Source of the DNA: an uncultured Roseburia sp.
Lineage (GTDB): Bacteria > Bacillota > Clostridia > Lachnospirales > Lachnospiraceae
DNA length: 64,000 nucleotides
Reading direction: 5' to 3'
Assembly: GCA_964408625.1 (NCBI GenBank)
Contig: CAYPAA010000001.1
Location: 63,860-127,859, forward strand
Shown: positions 2,903-47,233 of the stretch, piece after piece
Layout of the letters: every line of letters starts with the position of its first letter
How positions within the stretch are numbered: the stretch's first letter is position 1
Position numbers and translations under genes: made by a program
Notes under the pieces: model-generated
The model's database searches: none
Seen by the model: the letters and a program-made list of their open reading frames with translations, nothing else
Told to the model about the DNA's origin: nothing

Positions 2903-4111
2903 TTGAGACGAGTTGGAATTCTTGGTGGTACCTTTAACCCGATTCACAATGCGCATTTATCGATTGCAAATGCTGCTTATGAACAATTTTCTTTGGATGA
3001 AGTATGGTTTATGCCGGCAGGCATACCTCCGCATAAAAATGTTTCGGAGCATGTGTCTGCGGAGCTTCGGATGGAAATGGTAGAAAAAGCAATCAAATCG
3101 TATCCTCAGTTTCAAGTATGCGATATTGAGGTGAAAAAGACAAAACCATGTTACTCGTGGGAAACATTGAAAGAATTACATCAGATTTATGGGAATGATG
3201 TAAAGTTTTATCTTATTATCGGTGCAGATTCTTTATATGGCTTTCACACGTGGAAAAAGCCACAGAAGATATGTAAATATGCAGATATCCTCGTTGCAAA
3301 ACGCCCCGGAGATAATGATGATATAACGGAGAGTTTTGTTGAGGAACTGCGTTCATGTGAAAATGAATTTGGCAATCATTTTGATGAGATTGTGTCAGAT
3401 GAAATCAATATTTCCTCTACTGCGTTGCGCGAATCAATCTATTGTGGAAAAGATGTCTCGAAGCAAATACCGGAGAGCGTACAAAAAATCATTAAAGAAC
3501 ATCACTTATATCAAAGGATCTACTTATTGAACGAACTATCAACAATGCAACTGCATTTAAAAGAAGAACTAAAAACTGATCGATACACGCATACCCTTGG
3601 TGTGATGTATACAGCAGCCAATTTGGCATTCCTATATGAATATCCATACGAAAATGCTATGGTAGCCGGTCTGTTACATGATTGCGCAAAATGTTTATCT
3701 GATGAAGAACGCATTCGGATTTGTAAGGAAAACAATATAAAGATGTCTGCGGTGGAAAAGGAACATCCGCATTTATTGCATGGCAAGGTTGGTGCCTATT
3801 TGGCAAGGGAACAGTACGGCGTGACAGATGAGGCAATCCAACATGCGATAACTGTTCATACAACAGGATGTGTTAGAATGTCTCTGTTGGATAAGATTAT
3901 TTTTGTTGCCGATTATATAGAGCCAAAGCGCAACAAGGCGCCAAGATTACATGAAATCCGAAGGATGGCATATATCGATTTGGACTATTGTGTATATATG
4001 ATTTTGGAAGACACCATGACATATCTGAACCTGAGTCCGGATGCTGTGGACCAAACGACAAAGGAAACGTTTGCGTACTATGAAAAGAAAATAAAAGAAA
4101 GAGAGAAATAA
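2903..4111 (+). CDS. nadD: Fused nicotinate-nucleotide adenylyltransferase NadD and HD-domain Ap4A hydrolase YqeK
   Basis: N-half GGTFNPIHNAH...ISSTALR; C-half RYTHTLGV...GLLHDCAK...LLHG...HTTG...FVADYIEP. Confidence 0.9.
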   Translation: MRRVGILGGTFNPIHNAHLSIANAAYEQFSLDEVWFMPAGIPPHKNVSEHVSAELRMEMVEKAIKSYPQFQVCDIEVKKTKPCYSWETLKELHQIYGNDVKFYLIIGADSLYGFHTWKKPQKICKYADILVAKRPGDNDDITESFVEELRSCENEFGNHFDEIVSDEINISSTALRESIYCGKDVSKQIPESVQKIIKEHHLYQRIYLLNELSTMQLHLKEELKTDRYTHTLGVMYTAANLAFLYEYPYENAMVAGLLHDCAKCLSDEERIRICKENNIKMSAVEKEHPHLLHGKVGAYLAREQYGVTDEAIQHAITVHTTGCVRMSLLDKIIFVADYIEPKRNKAPRLHEIRRMAYIDLDYCVYMILEDTMTYLNLSPDAVDQTTKETFAYYEKKIKEREK

Positions 4112-4112
4112 T

Positions 4113-4463
4113 ATGAAAGATATCAAAGAGATTGTTGCTTTAATATGTAAAGCATTAGATAACAAGAAAGCAGAAGATATCAAAGTGATTGATATTCATG
4201 GCGTTTCTGTTATGGCGGATTACTTTGTTGTAGCCAGTGCAGACAACCATAACAAGCTCGTTGCCATGCAAAATGAAGTTGATAAAGTACTTCATGAAAA
4301 TGGTATTCATGCAAAACAAGTCGAGGGAAACCGAAACTCAACTTGGATTTTGATGGATTATGAGGATGTCATCGTTCATTTGTTCTCCGCAGAAGATCGT
4401 TTATTCTATAATTTAGAAAGAATCTGGCAGGATGGATCAATTTTAGACCCTGCAGATTTCTAA
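4113..4463 (+). CDS. rsfS: Ribosome silencing factor RsfS (Iojap)
   Basis: KKAEDI...ADYFVVAS...WILMDYEDVIVHLF...FYNLERIW. Confidence 0.96.
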   Translation: MKDIKEIVALICKALDNKKAEDIKVIDIHGVSVMADYFVVASADNHNKLVAMQNEVDKVLHENGIHAKQVEGNRNSTWILMDYEDVIVHLFSAEDRLFYNLERIWQDGSILDPADF

Positions 4464-5525
4464 TCATTTATCCTTACGATAATTGACTGCATTTGCTGCC
4501 TGACGTTTGTGTTCATCCTCCATGGCAGCATAATATTCGATTGTGGTATTGATATTTTCGTGGCCAAGCACATCGGCCACGAGGCGAATATCACCTGTTT
4601 CGCGGTATAAAGCAGTTCCGTATGTACTCCTCAATTTGTGAGGAGTAATTTTTTTGTTTGGAACCACCATTTTTGCGTATTTTTTTACCAGGTTTTCTAT
4701 GGAATCCACACTGATACGTTTTCCCTGCAAGGAATAGAAGAGAGCATCCTCATGACCATCAATCGGGGTTATCAAAGCTCTCTCTGTGCAGATATAGTCA
4801 TCCAAAACGCGGTTGATTTCATCATTAAAATACAAAACATCCTGACCGCCACCTTTTCGTACAATAATCATAGAATTGCCACGGAAATCAATGTCTGTAA
4901 GATCCAAACCGGTACACTCCGACACACGAATCCCGGTTCCAAGCATCAATGTAAGAATAGCTAAGTCGCGTTTTTGTGTCTTCTGGCAGTATTTGCGTTG
5001 ACGTTCAGACATGGTTGCCGTACCGTTTTCAATGGCATCTAAAATGGCTTGAACCTCGTAATTTTCCATACGGACAATGTTTTTATCTTTTTTTAATTTT
5101 GGTAATTTGACGAGTATCATCGGATTATCATCAATCAGTTTTCGCTCATATAAATATAGGAAAAATCCTCGTAAAGGAGACATTTTACGAGCAATCGATT
5201 TTTTTCCGTTCTCATGCATTTCACCGTCCACATTAAGTTCTAAATAGCGTTGAAATTCAATAATGTCATCCGATTTGATTTGAGAAAATTCTTTTAGGGT
5301 TAAATCCTTGATTGCGGTGTCTTTTAAAGCAGGGTTCTGAGCCACCAAAAAACGGAAAAATGTCAATAAATCATAAGAATATGAAATTAAAGTGCTGGTT
5401 TGAACGCCCAGTTCCTTGCTGTAGATGTAATCTGCAGCATATCTTGGAAGTTCTGAAAGAAGCTGGCGCAGTTTCACTTTTTGTGTTTTTGATTTTTCTT
5501 TATAATACTGTGAATCTTTTCCCAT
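4464..5525 (-). CDS. Tyrosine recombinase, XerS-like
   Basis: Catalytic motifs GIRVSE, RKGG, HKLR, LGH, Y intact; 353 aa; N-terminal and pre-RD segments resemble streptococcal XerS as recalled. Confidence 0.88.
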   Translation of the reverse strand: MGKDSQYYKEKSKTQKVKLRQLLSELPRYAADYIYSKELGVQTSTLISYSYDLLTFFRFLVAQNPALKDTAIKDLTLKEFSQIKSDDIIEFQRYLELNVDGEMHENGKKSIARKMSPLRGFFLYLYERKLIDDNPMILVKLPKLKKDKNIVRMENYEVQAILDAIENGTATMSERQRKYCQKTQKRDLAILTLMLGTGIRVSECTGLDLTDIDFRGNSMIIVRKGGGQDVLYFNDEINRVLDDYICTERALITPIDGHEDALFYSLQGKRISVDSIENLVKKYAKMVVPNKKITPHKLRSTYGTALYRETGDIRLVADVLGHENINTTIEYYAAMEDEHKRQAANAVNYRKDK

Positions 5526-5666
5526 AATTTATACCTCAAATCATATAAAGACAGCGAACTGTTTATTGTATAAGAATTATATATATTATACCACGTCGAC
5601 TGACGTCTCCGTGCGGGCATTCGCCTTATAGAGTTCCCTGTGCATGCACAGAGTTCTGCAAGTCTC

Positions 5667-5695
5667 ATTATACCATATCTTGAACATTATTGCAA
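5667..5695 (-). promoter_or_regulatory. sigma-A promoter of the recombinase gene
   Basis: TTGCAA (5695-5690), 17 nt, TATAAT (5672-5667) with TG extended -10. Confidence 0.7.
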
Positions 5696-5706
5696 TAATG
5701 TTCGGA
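5679..5706. other. Candidate dif-like recombination site TCCGAACATTA-TTGCAA-TAATGTTCAAG (minus reading)
   Basis: Perfect 22-bp palindrome at 5682-5703; 11-6-11 layout; right arm matches the E. coli XerD arm TTATGTTAAAT at 8/11; next to the recombinase at the gene-strand switch. Confidence 0.55.
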
Positions 5707-5777
5707 AAAACAGATATTTAACCGATAGTTAAGTTTTAGATGATTACACTTCTATTGCTGTATATTGTTTTGATTGT

Positions 5778-5811
5778 AAAAAAGCACTTGATTTTTCCTA
5801 AGTGCTTTTTT
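5778..5811. terminator. Bidirectional intrinsic terminator-like hairpin
   Basis: AAAAAAGCACTT...AAGTGCTTTTTT. Confidence 0.65.
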
Positions 5812-5843
5812 AGTTTCACTGAAATGTCTCCTTAATATGATTT

Positions 5844-5877
5844 AAAAAAAACAGACTGATATTGATTTATCAGTCTG
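5844..5877 (-). terminator. Terminator of plsC
   Basis: CAGACTGATA-6-TATCAGTCTG stem followed by a T8 run on the minus strand. Confidence 0.7.
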
Positions 5878-6592
5878 CATCTACACCAAATTCCTTCATC
5901 TTATCGATGATTCTTTGACGAACCATAACCGCAATGTCAGGTGTTTTCATATCTTTATAATCATCATAAAAAATCGGTTCCAAAAAAACAACTTTTGTTG
6001 TAACTGGGCCAAGTGAAAAACTGTTAAAAGGCTTGTAGGAATCAATCAGGGCAACCGGCACAATTGGCGTTTGCGAACGAATAACACATTTAAAACTACC
6101 GGGCTTAAAGCGCTGTACTTTGTTACGATTTTTGTCATAACCACCTTCAGAGAATAAAATATATCTCTTCCCCTGCTTTACTTCTTCTGTAATTTCATTG
6201 ATAATCGTCAGATTCTGTCTGACATTATCAAGTTCAAGCCGCTTTGCACCAAGCATATCGACCAATTCTTTTACCAAAAAGGAATTGGATTTGGCCTTGT
6301 CCATAACAAAAGAACATGGTTGCTGATGGGCATATATTATGCCAAGAGCATCGTATTTGCCTTGATGATTTGGAAACATAACGTATCCGCCCTCTTTTGG
6401 TAAATTCTCATGTCCATATACTTCTGTCTTAATCTTGCCGGAGGCTTTCATATAGTTAATCAACTTTTGAGCAAATGTATATCGGACCTGTTCTGAGTAA
6501 CGTTCCGGATGCCGAAACATCTTACGCATTTTAGGAATAAGATATGGTGCTCGCTTCATATTGGCAATAATTACAAGTAAAAAACGAAACAT
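5870..6592 (-). CDS. plsC: 1-acyl-sn-glycerol-3-phosphate acyltransferase
   Basis: NHQGKYD (HX4D), FSEGG, FKPG, PIVPVAL; RBS before ATG 6592. Confidence 0.88.
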   Translation of the reverse strand: MFRFLLVIIANMKRAPYLIPKMRKMFRHPERYSEQVRYTFAQKLINYMKASGKIKTEVYGHENLPKEGGYVMFPNHQGKYDALGIIYAHQQPCSFVMDKAKSNSFLVKELVDMLGAKRLELDNVRQNLTIINEITEEVKQGKRYILFSEGGYDKNRNKVQRFKPGSFKCVIRSQTPIVPVALIDSYKPFNSFSLGPVTTKVVFLEPIFYDDYKDMKTPDIAVMVRQRIIDKMKEFGVDAD

Positions 6593-7050: not shown

Positions 7051-7135
7051 CGAACTTTTGTTCTGATACCATAATACAATGGGAACAAATGTTTGTCAAG
7101 TAATTTTTCGAACAAATTTTCGGAAAATATGTTTG
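7051..7135. promoter_or_regulatory. Cluster of four LexA (SOS/Cheo) boxes overlapping the divergent yneA-like/lexA promoters
   Basis: CGAACTTTTGTTCT 7051-7064, GGAACAAATGTTTG 7082-7095, CGAACAAATTTTCG 7109-7122, GGAAAATATGTTTG 7122-7135; minus-strand promoter TTGACA (7099-7094), 17 nt, TATTAT. Confidence 0.8.
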
Positions 7136-7186
7136 CTTTTTGTAAGATTATTTGATATAGTTAAGAAAAGAGAAAGGAGATGTGCT

Positions 7187-7801
7187 ATGGCATACGGTAG
7201 AATTTCGGATAAACAAAGAGAGATTTTAGAATATATGAAACAGGAGATTCTAAATAAAGGATATCCTCCTACAGTGCGTGAGTTATGTGATGCTGTTCAT
7301 CTGAAATCAACATCTTCTATCCATTCCCATTTGGAGACATTAGAAAAGAATGGTTACATTCGTCGAGATCCTTCAAAGCCTCGTGCCATTGAGATTGTCG
7401 ATGATAATTTCAATCTTACGCGCCGCGAGATGGTCAATGTGCCGATTGTCGGATCGATCGCTGCCGGTCAGCCTCTGCTGGCGATTCAAAATATCGACAA
7501 CTACTTCCCTATTCCGGCCGAGTATATGCCGAATCAAGATACTTTTATGCTTCGCGTAAAGGGAGAAAGTATGATCAATGCAGGTATTTTTGATGGAGAT
7601 GTGATTCTCATAAAGCAACAGTCGACCGCTCGCAACGGAGAGATGGTTGCGGCGCTCGTTGATGATTCTGCTACAGTTAAGACATTTTACAAAGAGGATG
7701 GTCATATCAGACTTCAGCCCGAAAATGACAATATGGACCCTATCATTGTTCCGGATTGTCAGATTCTAGGCGTTGTATTTGGTGTGTTCCGTTTCTTCTA
7801 A
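7187..7801 (+). CDS. lexA: SOS repressor LexA
   Basis: GYPPTVREL HTH, AAG cleavage site, GESM and TVK catalytic dyad; RBS AAGGAG. Confidence 0.97.
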   Translation: MAYGRISDKQREILEYMKQEILNKGYPPTVRELCDAVHLKSTSSIHSHLETLEKNGYIRRDPSKPRAIEIVDDNFNLTRREMVNVPIVGSIAAGQPLLAIQNIDNYFPIPAEYMPNQDTFMLRVKGESMINAGIFDGDVILIKQQSTARNGEMVAALVDDSATVKTFYKEDGHIRLQPENDNMDPIIVPDCQILGVVFGVFRFF

Positions 7802-44617: not shown

Positions 44618-47233
44618 TTATTTATTTTCGTTATCTGAATGCGTTTCCTCTGATTCTGAACCGTAGTTGGGATCCAAATACTGTTCAAATTCTGTTTCTG
44701 TCATCAAAACACTTCTTGGCTTCGTTCCCACGTCCGGTCCGACAACTCCAGCTTCCTCCAACTGGTCAATGATTCGCGCAGCGCGATTAAAACCAACCTT
44801 GAAATATCGTTGAAGCATGCCGATGGATGCTTTTTCCTTGCCAATAATCAGCCGGCCGGCTTCCGCAAAGTAGGAATCCACCGTGTCGTCAAAGCCGCTT
44901 CCTCCACCTATCGTCGTTGCATTGGACGCCGTCTCACTACCCGAATCAATCAAACGTGTGACATTGTCATCATAGACAACATTTTCATTATTTCCTTTTA
45001 TGAAATCTACAACATTTTGCACTTCCTGATCGGATACAAATGCACCTTGCACACGGAGGGGCTTTGTATATCCTTGCGGATAATAAAGCATATCACCATT
45101 TCCGAGTAATTTTTCTGCTCCAAACATATCCAGAATCGTTCGTGAATCCACACCACTGTTGACTGAAAATGCAATTCTTGAAGGCATATTTGCTTTAATC
45201 AAACCGGTGACAACATCTACAGAAGGCCTCTGCGTTGCAAGGATTAAATAAATACCCGCGGCTCTGGCCTTTTGTGCCAGACGACAAATGGATTCTTCAA
45301 CCTCCTTCGCCGCTACCATCATCAAATCTGCCAATTCGTCAACAATGACAACCATCTCCGGCATCTTTTCAAATTCGCCCAACTCGCCGTTTGAATTTAT
45401 CGGCATCTTGTAGTTGTTCACAACAAGTTTTTGATTATAGGATTTAATATCTCTCACGCCTGCATCCGCAAATTTCTGATATCTGTCATCCATTTCCATC
45501 ACCGCCCAATGCAGTGCCCCCGCCGCTTTCTTTGGCTCGGTAACCACCGGTATCAGAAGATGTGGAATACCATTGTAGATGCTAAGTTCCACCACTTTGG
45601 GATCAATCATGATAAACTTGACTTCGTCCGGTGATGCCTTGTATAGAATACTCATAATAATGGTATTGATACATACCGATTTACCAGAACCCGTCGTACC
45701 TGCAATCAACAGATGCGGCATCCTTGCAATATTTGCGGTAATAACATTGCCGGAAATATCACGACCTGCACAAAATGTCACTTTTGATTCGCTGCCTTTA
45801 AACTCTTTTGAAACTGCCAGTTCCTCAAAAGACACCATCACTTTATTCTTGTTCGGAATCTCAATACCAACGGCTGCCTTGCCGGGAATCGGCGCTTCTA
45901 TTCGTATATCTGTAACTGCAAGATTTAATTTGATATCATCTGCAAGATTCGTAATTCGATTGACGCGAACCCCAACCTCAGGAAGCAGTTCATATCGTGT
46001 AACGGTCGGACCACATGTCACATCCGTCACCTCGACATTGATGCCAAAATTTTTAAGCGTCTGCTCCAGTTTATCGGCCGTGCTCTCCAGTTCTTCTTTA
46101 GAATTTTGATTAGATCCGCCAGACTTCTTAGTCAAGAGAGATAACGGCGGAAATTTGTATTTGCCATTCGATGCTGTCCTTGTGCTTGCAATCGTATTTG
46201 CCACTTCATTTGCGTTCTCCACCATCTCCTGTGTACTGGCAACCGTCTTTCGAGGACGCTTTCTCTCCTCACCAAATGATTCTGTATGCGATTCGTTTAC
46301 CGGATCCGACACCGTCTCATTCGGTTTATGAATCAACGATTTTGAACCCGATTTTTTTGATGAAAGCGATACCCGATTTACTTCCTTGACATCCATCTTC
46401 TCATCCGGAGACATATGTAACTCGTTCACTTCATCCGACGACAATTCTTTTGCGGTTGCATTTGTCGTCATTGTCGTATCGAACGCAACGCCGGAGATCC
46501 TACGATTGCGTCTGGGACCATCACTCATTGCAGCGGCTTGCATCTGCTGTTCTTTATCATTTCTAATGTGTTTTAACCGGCTGTCCCGACTCTCATTCGG
46601 GTCTGTATGACGGTGCTTGCTACGTCTTGTCCTACTGGGAGCATTCAAAAGTGATTTCTCGGTAATGAGAATAAAACATATAATCAGAAGTACGATTGTA
46701 ATGACATATGCGCTGATAATCCCAAATCCCTGCACAAGTGCCTGTGCAAAGAAGGCTCCGATAAAGCCGCCTCCGGCTTTATTCTCAGAGCCATTATAAT
46801 AGCCTTGCATTGCACCACATGTATTAGAACCATGCGCAACCAATTCAATCATAACGCTCAATAAAATAACAAAAATGATGCCGACGATCAGTTTTACAAT
46901 CGCAATGCGATTTCCTGAATTTGAGATTGTAAAAAAAACGCCTATCAGAAGTAGAATCGGAAACAAATATGCCACAATTCCGAATATTCCAAAGAAAAAG
47001 CTGCTCACGGCATTTCCTACAACACCACCAATACCAAGATTACTAATAAATAGTAAAATACAGACGGCAAGCATAACCCACAGGATGATTTCTTTGATAA
47101 ATTCTACTCGCGCAACATCTATCACTTCAGCCTCTACTGTAACATTTTTTGTCTTTGCAGCAGGCTTTTTTGCTTTGGAACCAGATGAAGTTGTTTTCTT
47201 TGAAGAAGACTTCTTCTTTTCAGCCATTTCCAT
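44618..47233 (-). CDS. ftsK: DNA translocase FtsK/SpoIIIE
   Basis: N-terminal TMs, [27 protein letters not shown]; gamma domain [14 protein letters not shown]. Confidence 0.96.

Follow-up and report, generated by a model that had tools for sequence, protein, structure and literature searches.

A probable single-recombinase chromosome dimer resolution module related to XerS at the replication terminus of an uncultured Roseburia

Which DNA site does a lone tyrosine recombinase act on, and to what end, when it is encoded among housekeeping genes and preceded by a conspicuous palindrome? This question was raised by a stretch of 64,000 nucleotides from an uncultured Roseburia sp. (GenBank assembly GCA_964408625.1, contig CAYPAA010000001.1, positions 63,860 to 127,859), hereafter referred to as the window and used for the numbering of all features in Table 1. 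The original prediction, made from the sequence alone, described a clostridial single-recombinase Xer/dif module in which the palindrome was the site of recombination. We found support for the module in the position of the locus at the replication terminus, the failure to find XerC/XerD-grade proteins in 13 genus genomes and the presence of an FtsK with a gamma domain, but not for the palindrome as its site. The locus is very probably a chromosome dimer resolution module with a single recombinase, related to XerS, that would act on a distinct 28-bp site at the terminus.

Table 1. Features of the recombinase locus and its surroundings in the window.
Feature	Position	Strand	Basis
Tyrosine recombinase gene, XerS-related ('LX' clade), 353 aa	4464..5525	minus	ORF, family models
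GC-skew switch from + to - (cumulative maximum) with converging gene orientations: replication terminus	4000..5750		skew, ORF strands
Recombinase gene promoter: -35 TTGCAA (5690-5695), 17-nt spacer, extended -10 TGGTATAAT (hexamer 5667-5672)	5667..5695	minus	
Perfect 22-bp palindrome GAACATTATTGCAATAATGTTC, species-specific	5682..5703		absent from relatives examined
Dif-like core site, 28 bp, 11-6-11	5700..5727	minus	conservation, single copy, PWM
Proximal arm TTTTTCCGAAC	5700-5710	gene strand	
Centre TATCTG, asymmetric	5711-5716	gene strand	
Distal arm TATCGGTTAAA	5717-5727	gene strand	
Terminator-like hairpin, 13-bp arms, A-run on one side and T-run on the other; bounds the site-bearing spacer	5777..5812		
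Second terminator-like hairpin, after the upstream acyltransferase gene	5851-5878		
FtsK/SpoIIIE translocase gene, 871 aa, 4TM + alpha + motor + gamma	44618..47233	minus	FtsK_gamma 86 bits

The gene encodes, as originally proposed, a tyrosine recombinase with an intact R-K-H-R-H-Y set. Pfam models matched both Phage_integrase (112.6 bits) and an N-terminal SAM-like domain, and the six catalytic residues (R200, K224, H296, R299, H322 and Y332) line up with those of E. coli XerD (PDB 1a0p) and are invariant among the 15 orthologues compared. The top NCBIfam model was XerS (NF003462, 193.4 bits, model positions 4-357 of 360), with the XerC, XerD and XerA models behind it at 154-162 bits, although the XerS score falls below the equivalog cut-off of 267 bits. 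Other members of the clade score 171-211 bits on the same model, versus 531-562 bits for true XerS proteins (356 aa), the genes of which were taken from metagenome contigs bearing difSL. Alignment with true XerS covered both domains at ~31% identity over 339 residues. All three XerS-like peptides pointed out in the original prediction are present and lie inside the stretches that align with real XerS, and an insertion ahead of the first catalytic arginine is common to the 353-aa protein and XerS and absent from XerD.

The relationship was also recovered by phylogeny. In a maximum-likelihood tree of 48 proteins, the clostridial clade grouped with XerS against Lachnospiraceae XerD, a group of ~310-aa Xer-like proteins and the outgroup, and the uniting branch received an ultrafast bootstrap of 100 and an SH-aLRT of 97. 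Monophyly of the clade apart from XerS was more weakly supported (82/96). In a larger tree computed before, which still contained long-branch rows, the grouping of the clade with XerS had a support of 80. The phylogenetic comparison called for at the outset was borne out for XerS against XerD, in a tree whose sampling comprised these groups but no XerH, XerA or XerL. Against solved structures, the clade profile scored 115 bits for XerD, 105 for XerA and 56 for XerH (PDB 5jjv); the 353-aa protein is not closer to XerH than to other Xer proteins.

Turning to the DNA upstream of the gene, the perfect 22-bp palindrome does exist, 157 bp from the ATG, and no other match to its sequence was found when up to 3 mismatches were allowed in the window or up to 4 in the 2.01-Mb assembly (91 contigs, 86% complete). 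Perfect palindromes of at least 22 bp without a spacer number 8 in the genome versus ~0.6 expected from a composition model, so that this one is a non-random feature, albeit one of several of its kind. Parsed as 11-6-11 around TTGCAA, it was proposed to be the dif site acted on by the recombinase, and its perfection, single copy, length beyond compositional expectation, proximity to the gene and location at the skew switch are all in line with this idea. However, the palindrome is absent from 11/11 other loci of the same genus (76-80% protein identity) and also from the more distant loci examined; conservation at 0/11 genus loci is the very observation that the original prediction had named as contradicting it. 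The spacer is colinear with that of the genus loci without indels, and hence the palindrome arose through point changes in one species. Furthermore, its centre coincides with the -35 hexamer of the recombinase gene promoter (TTGCAA-17-TGnTATAAT, 10/12 consensus positions with the TG present), of which both hexamers and the 17-nt spacing are retained in genus relatives. The palindrome spans the -35 box, part of the promoter spacer and the outer 4 bp of the proximal arm of the adjacent 28-bp site; these 4 bp are the entire overlap with that site, which is conserved across the family. Finally, complete symmetry, the centre included, would leave a recombinase without directionality. Judging from these comparisons, the palindrome is a species-specific feature over the promoter and not the crossover site, and we see scarcely any chance that it serves as dif. 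The 8/11 agreement of its right arm with the E. coli XerD arm can be disregarded, there being no XerD in the genus.

Two further readings of the palindrome were considered and ruled out. A XerD docking site fails on the lack of XerD in the genus. A LexA (Cheo) box has the form GAAC-N4-GTTC, and the palindrome reads GAAC-N14-GTTC. The 5' leader of the gene (5526-5666) contains ~90 nt without counterpart in genus relatives, among them another copy of TGGTATAAT and a GC-rich segment. A search of positions 5300-6000 against Rfam gave no match near threshold.

A dif-like target just upstream of the gene was nonetheless correctly anticipated, and the motif search proposed for the upstream regions of orthologues did uncover a conserved single-copy element; this element is the 28-bp site and not the palindrome. 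Just upstream of the -35 box, all 12/12 genus loci share a block with the core CGG(A/T)TAAATATCTGTTT(T/A)TC(C/A)G, which parses into two 11-bp inverted arms and a 6-bp asymmetric centre (genus consensus TATCGGATAAA-TATCTG-TTTTTCCGAAA). The end coordinate of the original prediction, 5712, cuts across this site. Exactly one copy of the 22-nt core was found in 12/13 genus genomes, each time beside the recombinase gene; the remaining genome, which is 81% complete, is without the gene as well. The window offers a clear case of an eye-catching palindrome as a decoy beside what is probably the real site.

The search was extended with a PWM built by iterating on sites upstream of orthologues. A site was located at most 500 bp upstream in 80/108 loci, and no good site was found within this distance by the PWM in the other 28. 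Orientation relative to the gene was identical in 75 of these 80 sites, and the median distance to the start codon was 76 bp; in the window, 175 bp separate the site from the ATG. In its own genome the window site ranks top with a score of 28.8, the next best reaching 17.3. Information per position amounted to 1.25-1.37 bits in the arms and 0.75 bits in the centre, and 21 different centre sequences were counted among 50 distinct sites. Conserved arms flanking a free centre are the pattern expected of the core site of a tyrosine recombinase.

A second arm variant (e.g. TATACGACAAA-CACATG-TTTTTCAAATA) occurs beside orthologues in Blautia, Dorea, Mediterraneibacter and others. Of the 39 family genomes in which it was found, 37 have a single copy. 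The double found in genome G291 consists of one exact match and one match with two mismatches on another contig. That of genome G306 was considered as an integrated element and rejected, the copies being overlapping contig ends. In genus loci L002-L011, dyad symmetry reaches past the 28-bp core to ~16-6-16 (GTATCTATCGGATAAA / ATATCTTTCGGAAAAA); the window site has lost this outer symmetry on the side where the 22-bp palindrome formed. One relative (G015; locus L247, G015:C2:98000-114000) harbors two paralogues of the XerS-like gene 3 kb apart, for which only one site was found, TATTCGCGAAA-GAACAG-TTTAACGAATA, located 3.6 kb upstream of the first paralogue. Use of the site by phages was considered and rejected: no viral contigs with the genus-type site were detected, and phage BLAST matches remained at chance level. 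A site of the second arm variant lies 91 bp from the end of one IMG/VR contig, but its neighbors, IS21 and methylase genes, say little about phage use.

Since the 28-bp element abuts the -35 box and operators are expected to be conserved beside a promoter, it might be a mere operator of the recombinase gene, bound by the recombinase or by another regulator, with the crossover site elsewhere or nonexistent. We consider this improbable on several grounds. Arms that stay constant around a 6-bp centre free to vary, here in 21 variants, point to the core site of a recombinase and not to an operator. The form of the site is also kept in those lineages in which it is found downstream of the gene or at a distance of 0.6-3.6 kb. 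Moreover, the site resembles the experimentally proven difSL, and its position at the terminus is conserved.

The terminus assignment is based on several lines of evidence. The cumulative GC skew of the 129-kb contig peaks at the recombinase gene and its site (~+0.2 to the left, ~-0.15 to the right), and gene orientations converge at the same switch, with the + strand to the left and the - strand to the right. Among orthologous loci for which both flanks were available, the skew changes from + to - in 62/88 and in the reverse direction in 4/88. In four large assemblies, two of them single-contig, the distance between the orthologue and dnaA is 44-48% of genome length (genome sizes rounded). 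The solitary XerS-related recombinase of the original prediction is thereby placed at the replication terminus. The neighboring genes encode housekeeping functions (L27, Obg, YhbY, NadD-HD, RsfS, acyltransferase, LysM, LexA and RluD); the LexA gene lies at 7079-7798, 1.4 kb from the 28-bp site.

These surroundings also bear on whether the recombinase is instead the integrase of a mobile element or a DNA invertase that lies at the terminus incidentally. The Pfam match to phage integrases would agree with such an origin, as would the other tyrosine recombinases of the same assembly, which are found on small contigs and some of them in runs of three. As had been noted from the sequence, however, there is no phage or ICE cargo among the neighbors of the gene, and neither an att duplication nor a second inverted site was found in site searches of the assembly and the genus genomes. 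In addition, one conserved orthologue is present in 40/41 relatives across the order, with 76-80% identity within the genus and 40-52% outside, and the terminus position is conserved. We therefore find a mobile-element or invertase function very hard to reconcile with the locus. Contigs C74 (631-3438) and C80 (129-2876) of the assembly each carry three consecutive tyrosine recombinase open reading frames that look like recombinase-in-trio mobile elements.

Does the recombinase act alone? Among 13 genus genomes, three of which are 92-99% complete, no match of XerC or XerD grade was found, the best reaching 159 bits versus a cut-off of 330. The best matches to the arms of the canonical Firmicute dif (taken from the Kono supplement) in the own genome had 4-5 mismatches and no dyad, and a degenerate canonical-dif pattern occurred in 61 family genomes as often as its reversed-pattern control. 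The Kono 2011 supplement lists no Lachnospiraceae, and hence offers no earlier dif prediction for comparison. The lack of a partner recombinase noted in the original prediction was therefore confirmed within the genus, and a XerCD/dif pair elsewhere, which would have argued against the proposed module, did not turn up (13 genus genomes; own genome for dif).

Outside the genus the picture differs. In about 30/60 Lachnospiraceae genomes the XerS-like protein is accompanied by a XerD that scores close to the family cut-off or reaches it, which means that the clade does not act alone everywhere; 'solitary' applies to the genus, not to the whole clade. Relatives in which the two coexist include G014, G046, G071, G080, G083 and others. 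Many Lachnospiraceae also carry a second Xer-like protein of ~310 aa that scores 210-245 bits on the XerD model. The co-occurrence with XerD, together with the consistent difference between the two arms of the site, could mean that the recombinase requires a second, unrecognized recombinase or an accessory protein (e.g. XerD where present) and does not form a true one-enzyme system. We judge such a dependence to be unlikely, given that the 13 genus genomes, including the three with a completeness of 92% or more, yielded no XerC/XerD-grade protein, and that arm asymmetry is also a property of difSL, which is served by XerS alone.

Having weighed these alternatives, we return to dimer resolution by a single XerS-related recombinase. 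The analysis established the anatomy, conservation and single copy of the site, its position at the terminus, the relationship of the recombinase to XerS and that no XerC or XerD was found in the genus; binding and cleavage by the recombinase, FtsK dependence and autoregulation are inferred. By analogy with XerS/difSL, two recombinase monomers would bind the two slightly different 11-bp arms of the site. FtsK would bring the two sites of a dimeric chromosome together at the septum, where four monomers would swap strands at the edges of the asymmetric TATCTG centre and convert the dimer into monomers. The FtsK/SpoIIIE protein encoded 40 kb away is the presumed activator. With 4 bp between the end of the proximal arm and the -35 box, recombinase on the site could also reduce the transcription of its own gene.

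We then considered how widespread the system may be. Loci of the clade amount to at least 594 at the species level in the genome collection, and in a library of 1.84 billion proteins clustered at 50% identity, 730 clusters matched with E of 1e-30 or better. Among 201 sampled Clostridia genomes, 29 harbor a member (E of 1e-50 or better), distributed over ~14 families. In one Clostridia family with genomes of 0.8-1.0 Mb (f56: G133, G164, G191, G218 and G244), an orthologue is retained in 5/5 (E 1e-75 to 1e-82), which fits a core function. Public records label the protein merely 'tyrosine-type recombinase/integrase' or 'XerD'. Reviews and recent papers (including PMC5357621) place single-recombinase Xer systems only in streptococci and lactococci, epsilon-proteobacteria, archaea and Legionellales, and a paper from 2022 recognizes XerS and XerH as the only bacterial ones besides its new XerL. 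Our literature search returned no paper joining XerS with Lachnospiraceae and no published description of a Xer system of this kind in Clostridia. Le Bourgeois et al. (PMC1914069) speculated that Streptococcaceae gained XerS around their split from other firmicutes, the source being unnamed.

On balance, we lean slightly toward a broader proposal, namely that the clade and its own 28-bp dif constitute a one-enzyme dimer resolvase of Lachnospiraceae and several other Clostridia families, undescribed in the literature searched and coexisting with XerD in about half of Lachnospiraceae, and that XerS/difSL may be a rapidly evolving branch of the clostridial lineage that streptococci acquired by transfer. 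If true, the role of XerD in about half of Lachnospiraceae, which are among the most abundant human gut bacteria, would need re-examination. A defined site and enzyme would furthermore mark the terminus in fragmented gut genomes, offer a target for integrative tools and make the origin of XerS testable.

Among known systems, the closest counterpart is XerS/difSL of Streptococcus and Lactococcus (Le Bourgeois 2007, PMC1914069; Nolivos 2010, PMC2965235). The original prediction had noticed that the flank TTTTTCCGAA recalls difSL, and this turned out to be a correct lead, the 28-bp site resembling lactococcal difSL. The minimal L. lactis difSL used in experiments (sequence from PMC2965235 Methods) agrees with the genus consensus at 22/31 positions (14/15 in the left half), yet plain identity of 19-22/31 also arises by chance in AT-rich DNA, a chance 22/31 match occurring within 20 kb of the window. 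Plain identity being prone to chance, it was replaced by a PWM test in a fixed register: L. lactis difSL scored 10.1 in the 11-6-11 register, with eight registers tried, and among random 28-mers drawn from the own genome a fraction of 7.5e-6 scored as high. The difSL arms have been given as TTTCCGAAAA and TTTTCTTGAAA (PMC5357621). The reverse complement of the genus proximal arm, TTTCGGAAAAA, matches the difSL left arm TTTCCGAAAAA at 10/11 positions; that of the window's own proximal arm reads GTTCGGAAAAA.

A related observation was made on Lactococcus lactis plasmid pLd8 (NZ_MF150536.1, 18698-18737; L249:1501-1540), which carries an intergenic perfect palindrome, TTTCGGAAAAA / TTTTTCCGAAA, with the 6-bp centre CAAAAA. 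Its arms equal the genus consensus proximal arm and are close to the difSL left arm, the window arm being one base off. This palindrome could be a plasmid-borne target for XerS.

The Roseburia module and XerS/difSL share one long Xer-type recombinase (~355 aa), alignable over its full length, and a single-copy terminus site that closely precedes the recombinase gene, with FtsK present. In both sites the arms are unequal, the centre is faced by an A-run and a T-run, and the half-site TTTC(C/G)GAAAAA occurs. The proteins group together in the tree and carry the same insertion before the first catalytic arginine. They differ in that the clostridial protein has only ~31% identity to XerS and the clade scores 170-210 bits in round numbers on the XerS model versus 530-560 for true XerS. 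The site is a regular 28-bp 11-6-11 with arms of equal length, whereas difSL spans 31 bp, its arms differ in length by one base, and cleavage has been reported at a spacing of 11 bp (PMC5357621). The arm most similar to the strong difSL arm is proximal to the gene here and distal in streptococci, and the hosts are Clostridia rather than Bacilli. Similarly to XerH/difH of Helicobacter and Campylobacter, a single recombinase of comparable length is linked to its site, and the arms end in a GAAAA-type sequence; in contrast, the clade profile scores XerH low (56 bits) and the phylum is different. With XerCD/dif of E. coli and CodV-RipX/dif of B. subtilis the locus shares a 28-bp 11-6-11 site at the terminus, the catalytic residues and presumed control by FtsK. 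Unlike these, it would rely on one enzyme in place of two, has no canonical dif arms and belongs to a genus in which no XerC or XerD was found. Finally, while the xer genes of XerCD/dif systems lie apart from dif (PMC1914069), the recombinase gene described here abuts its site.
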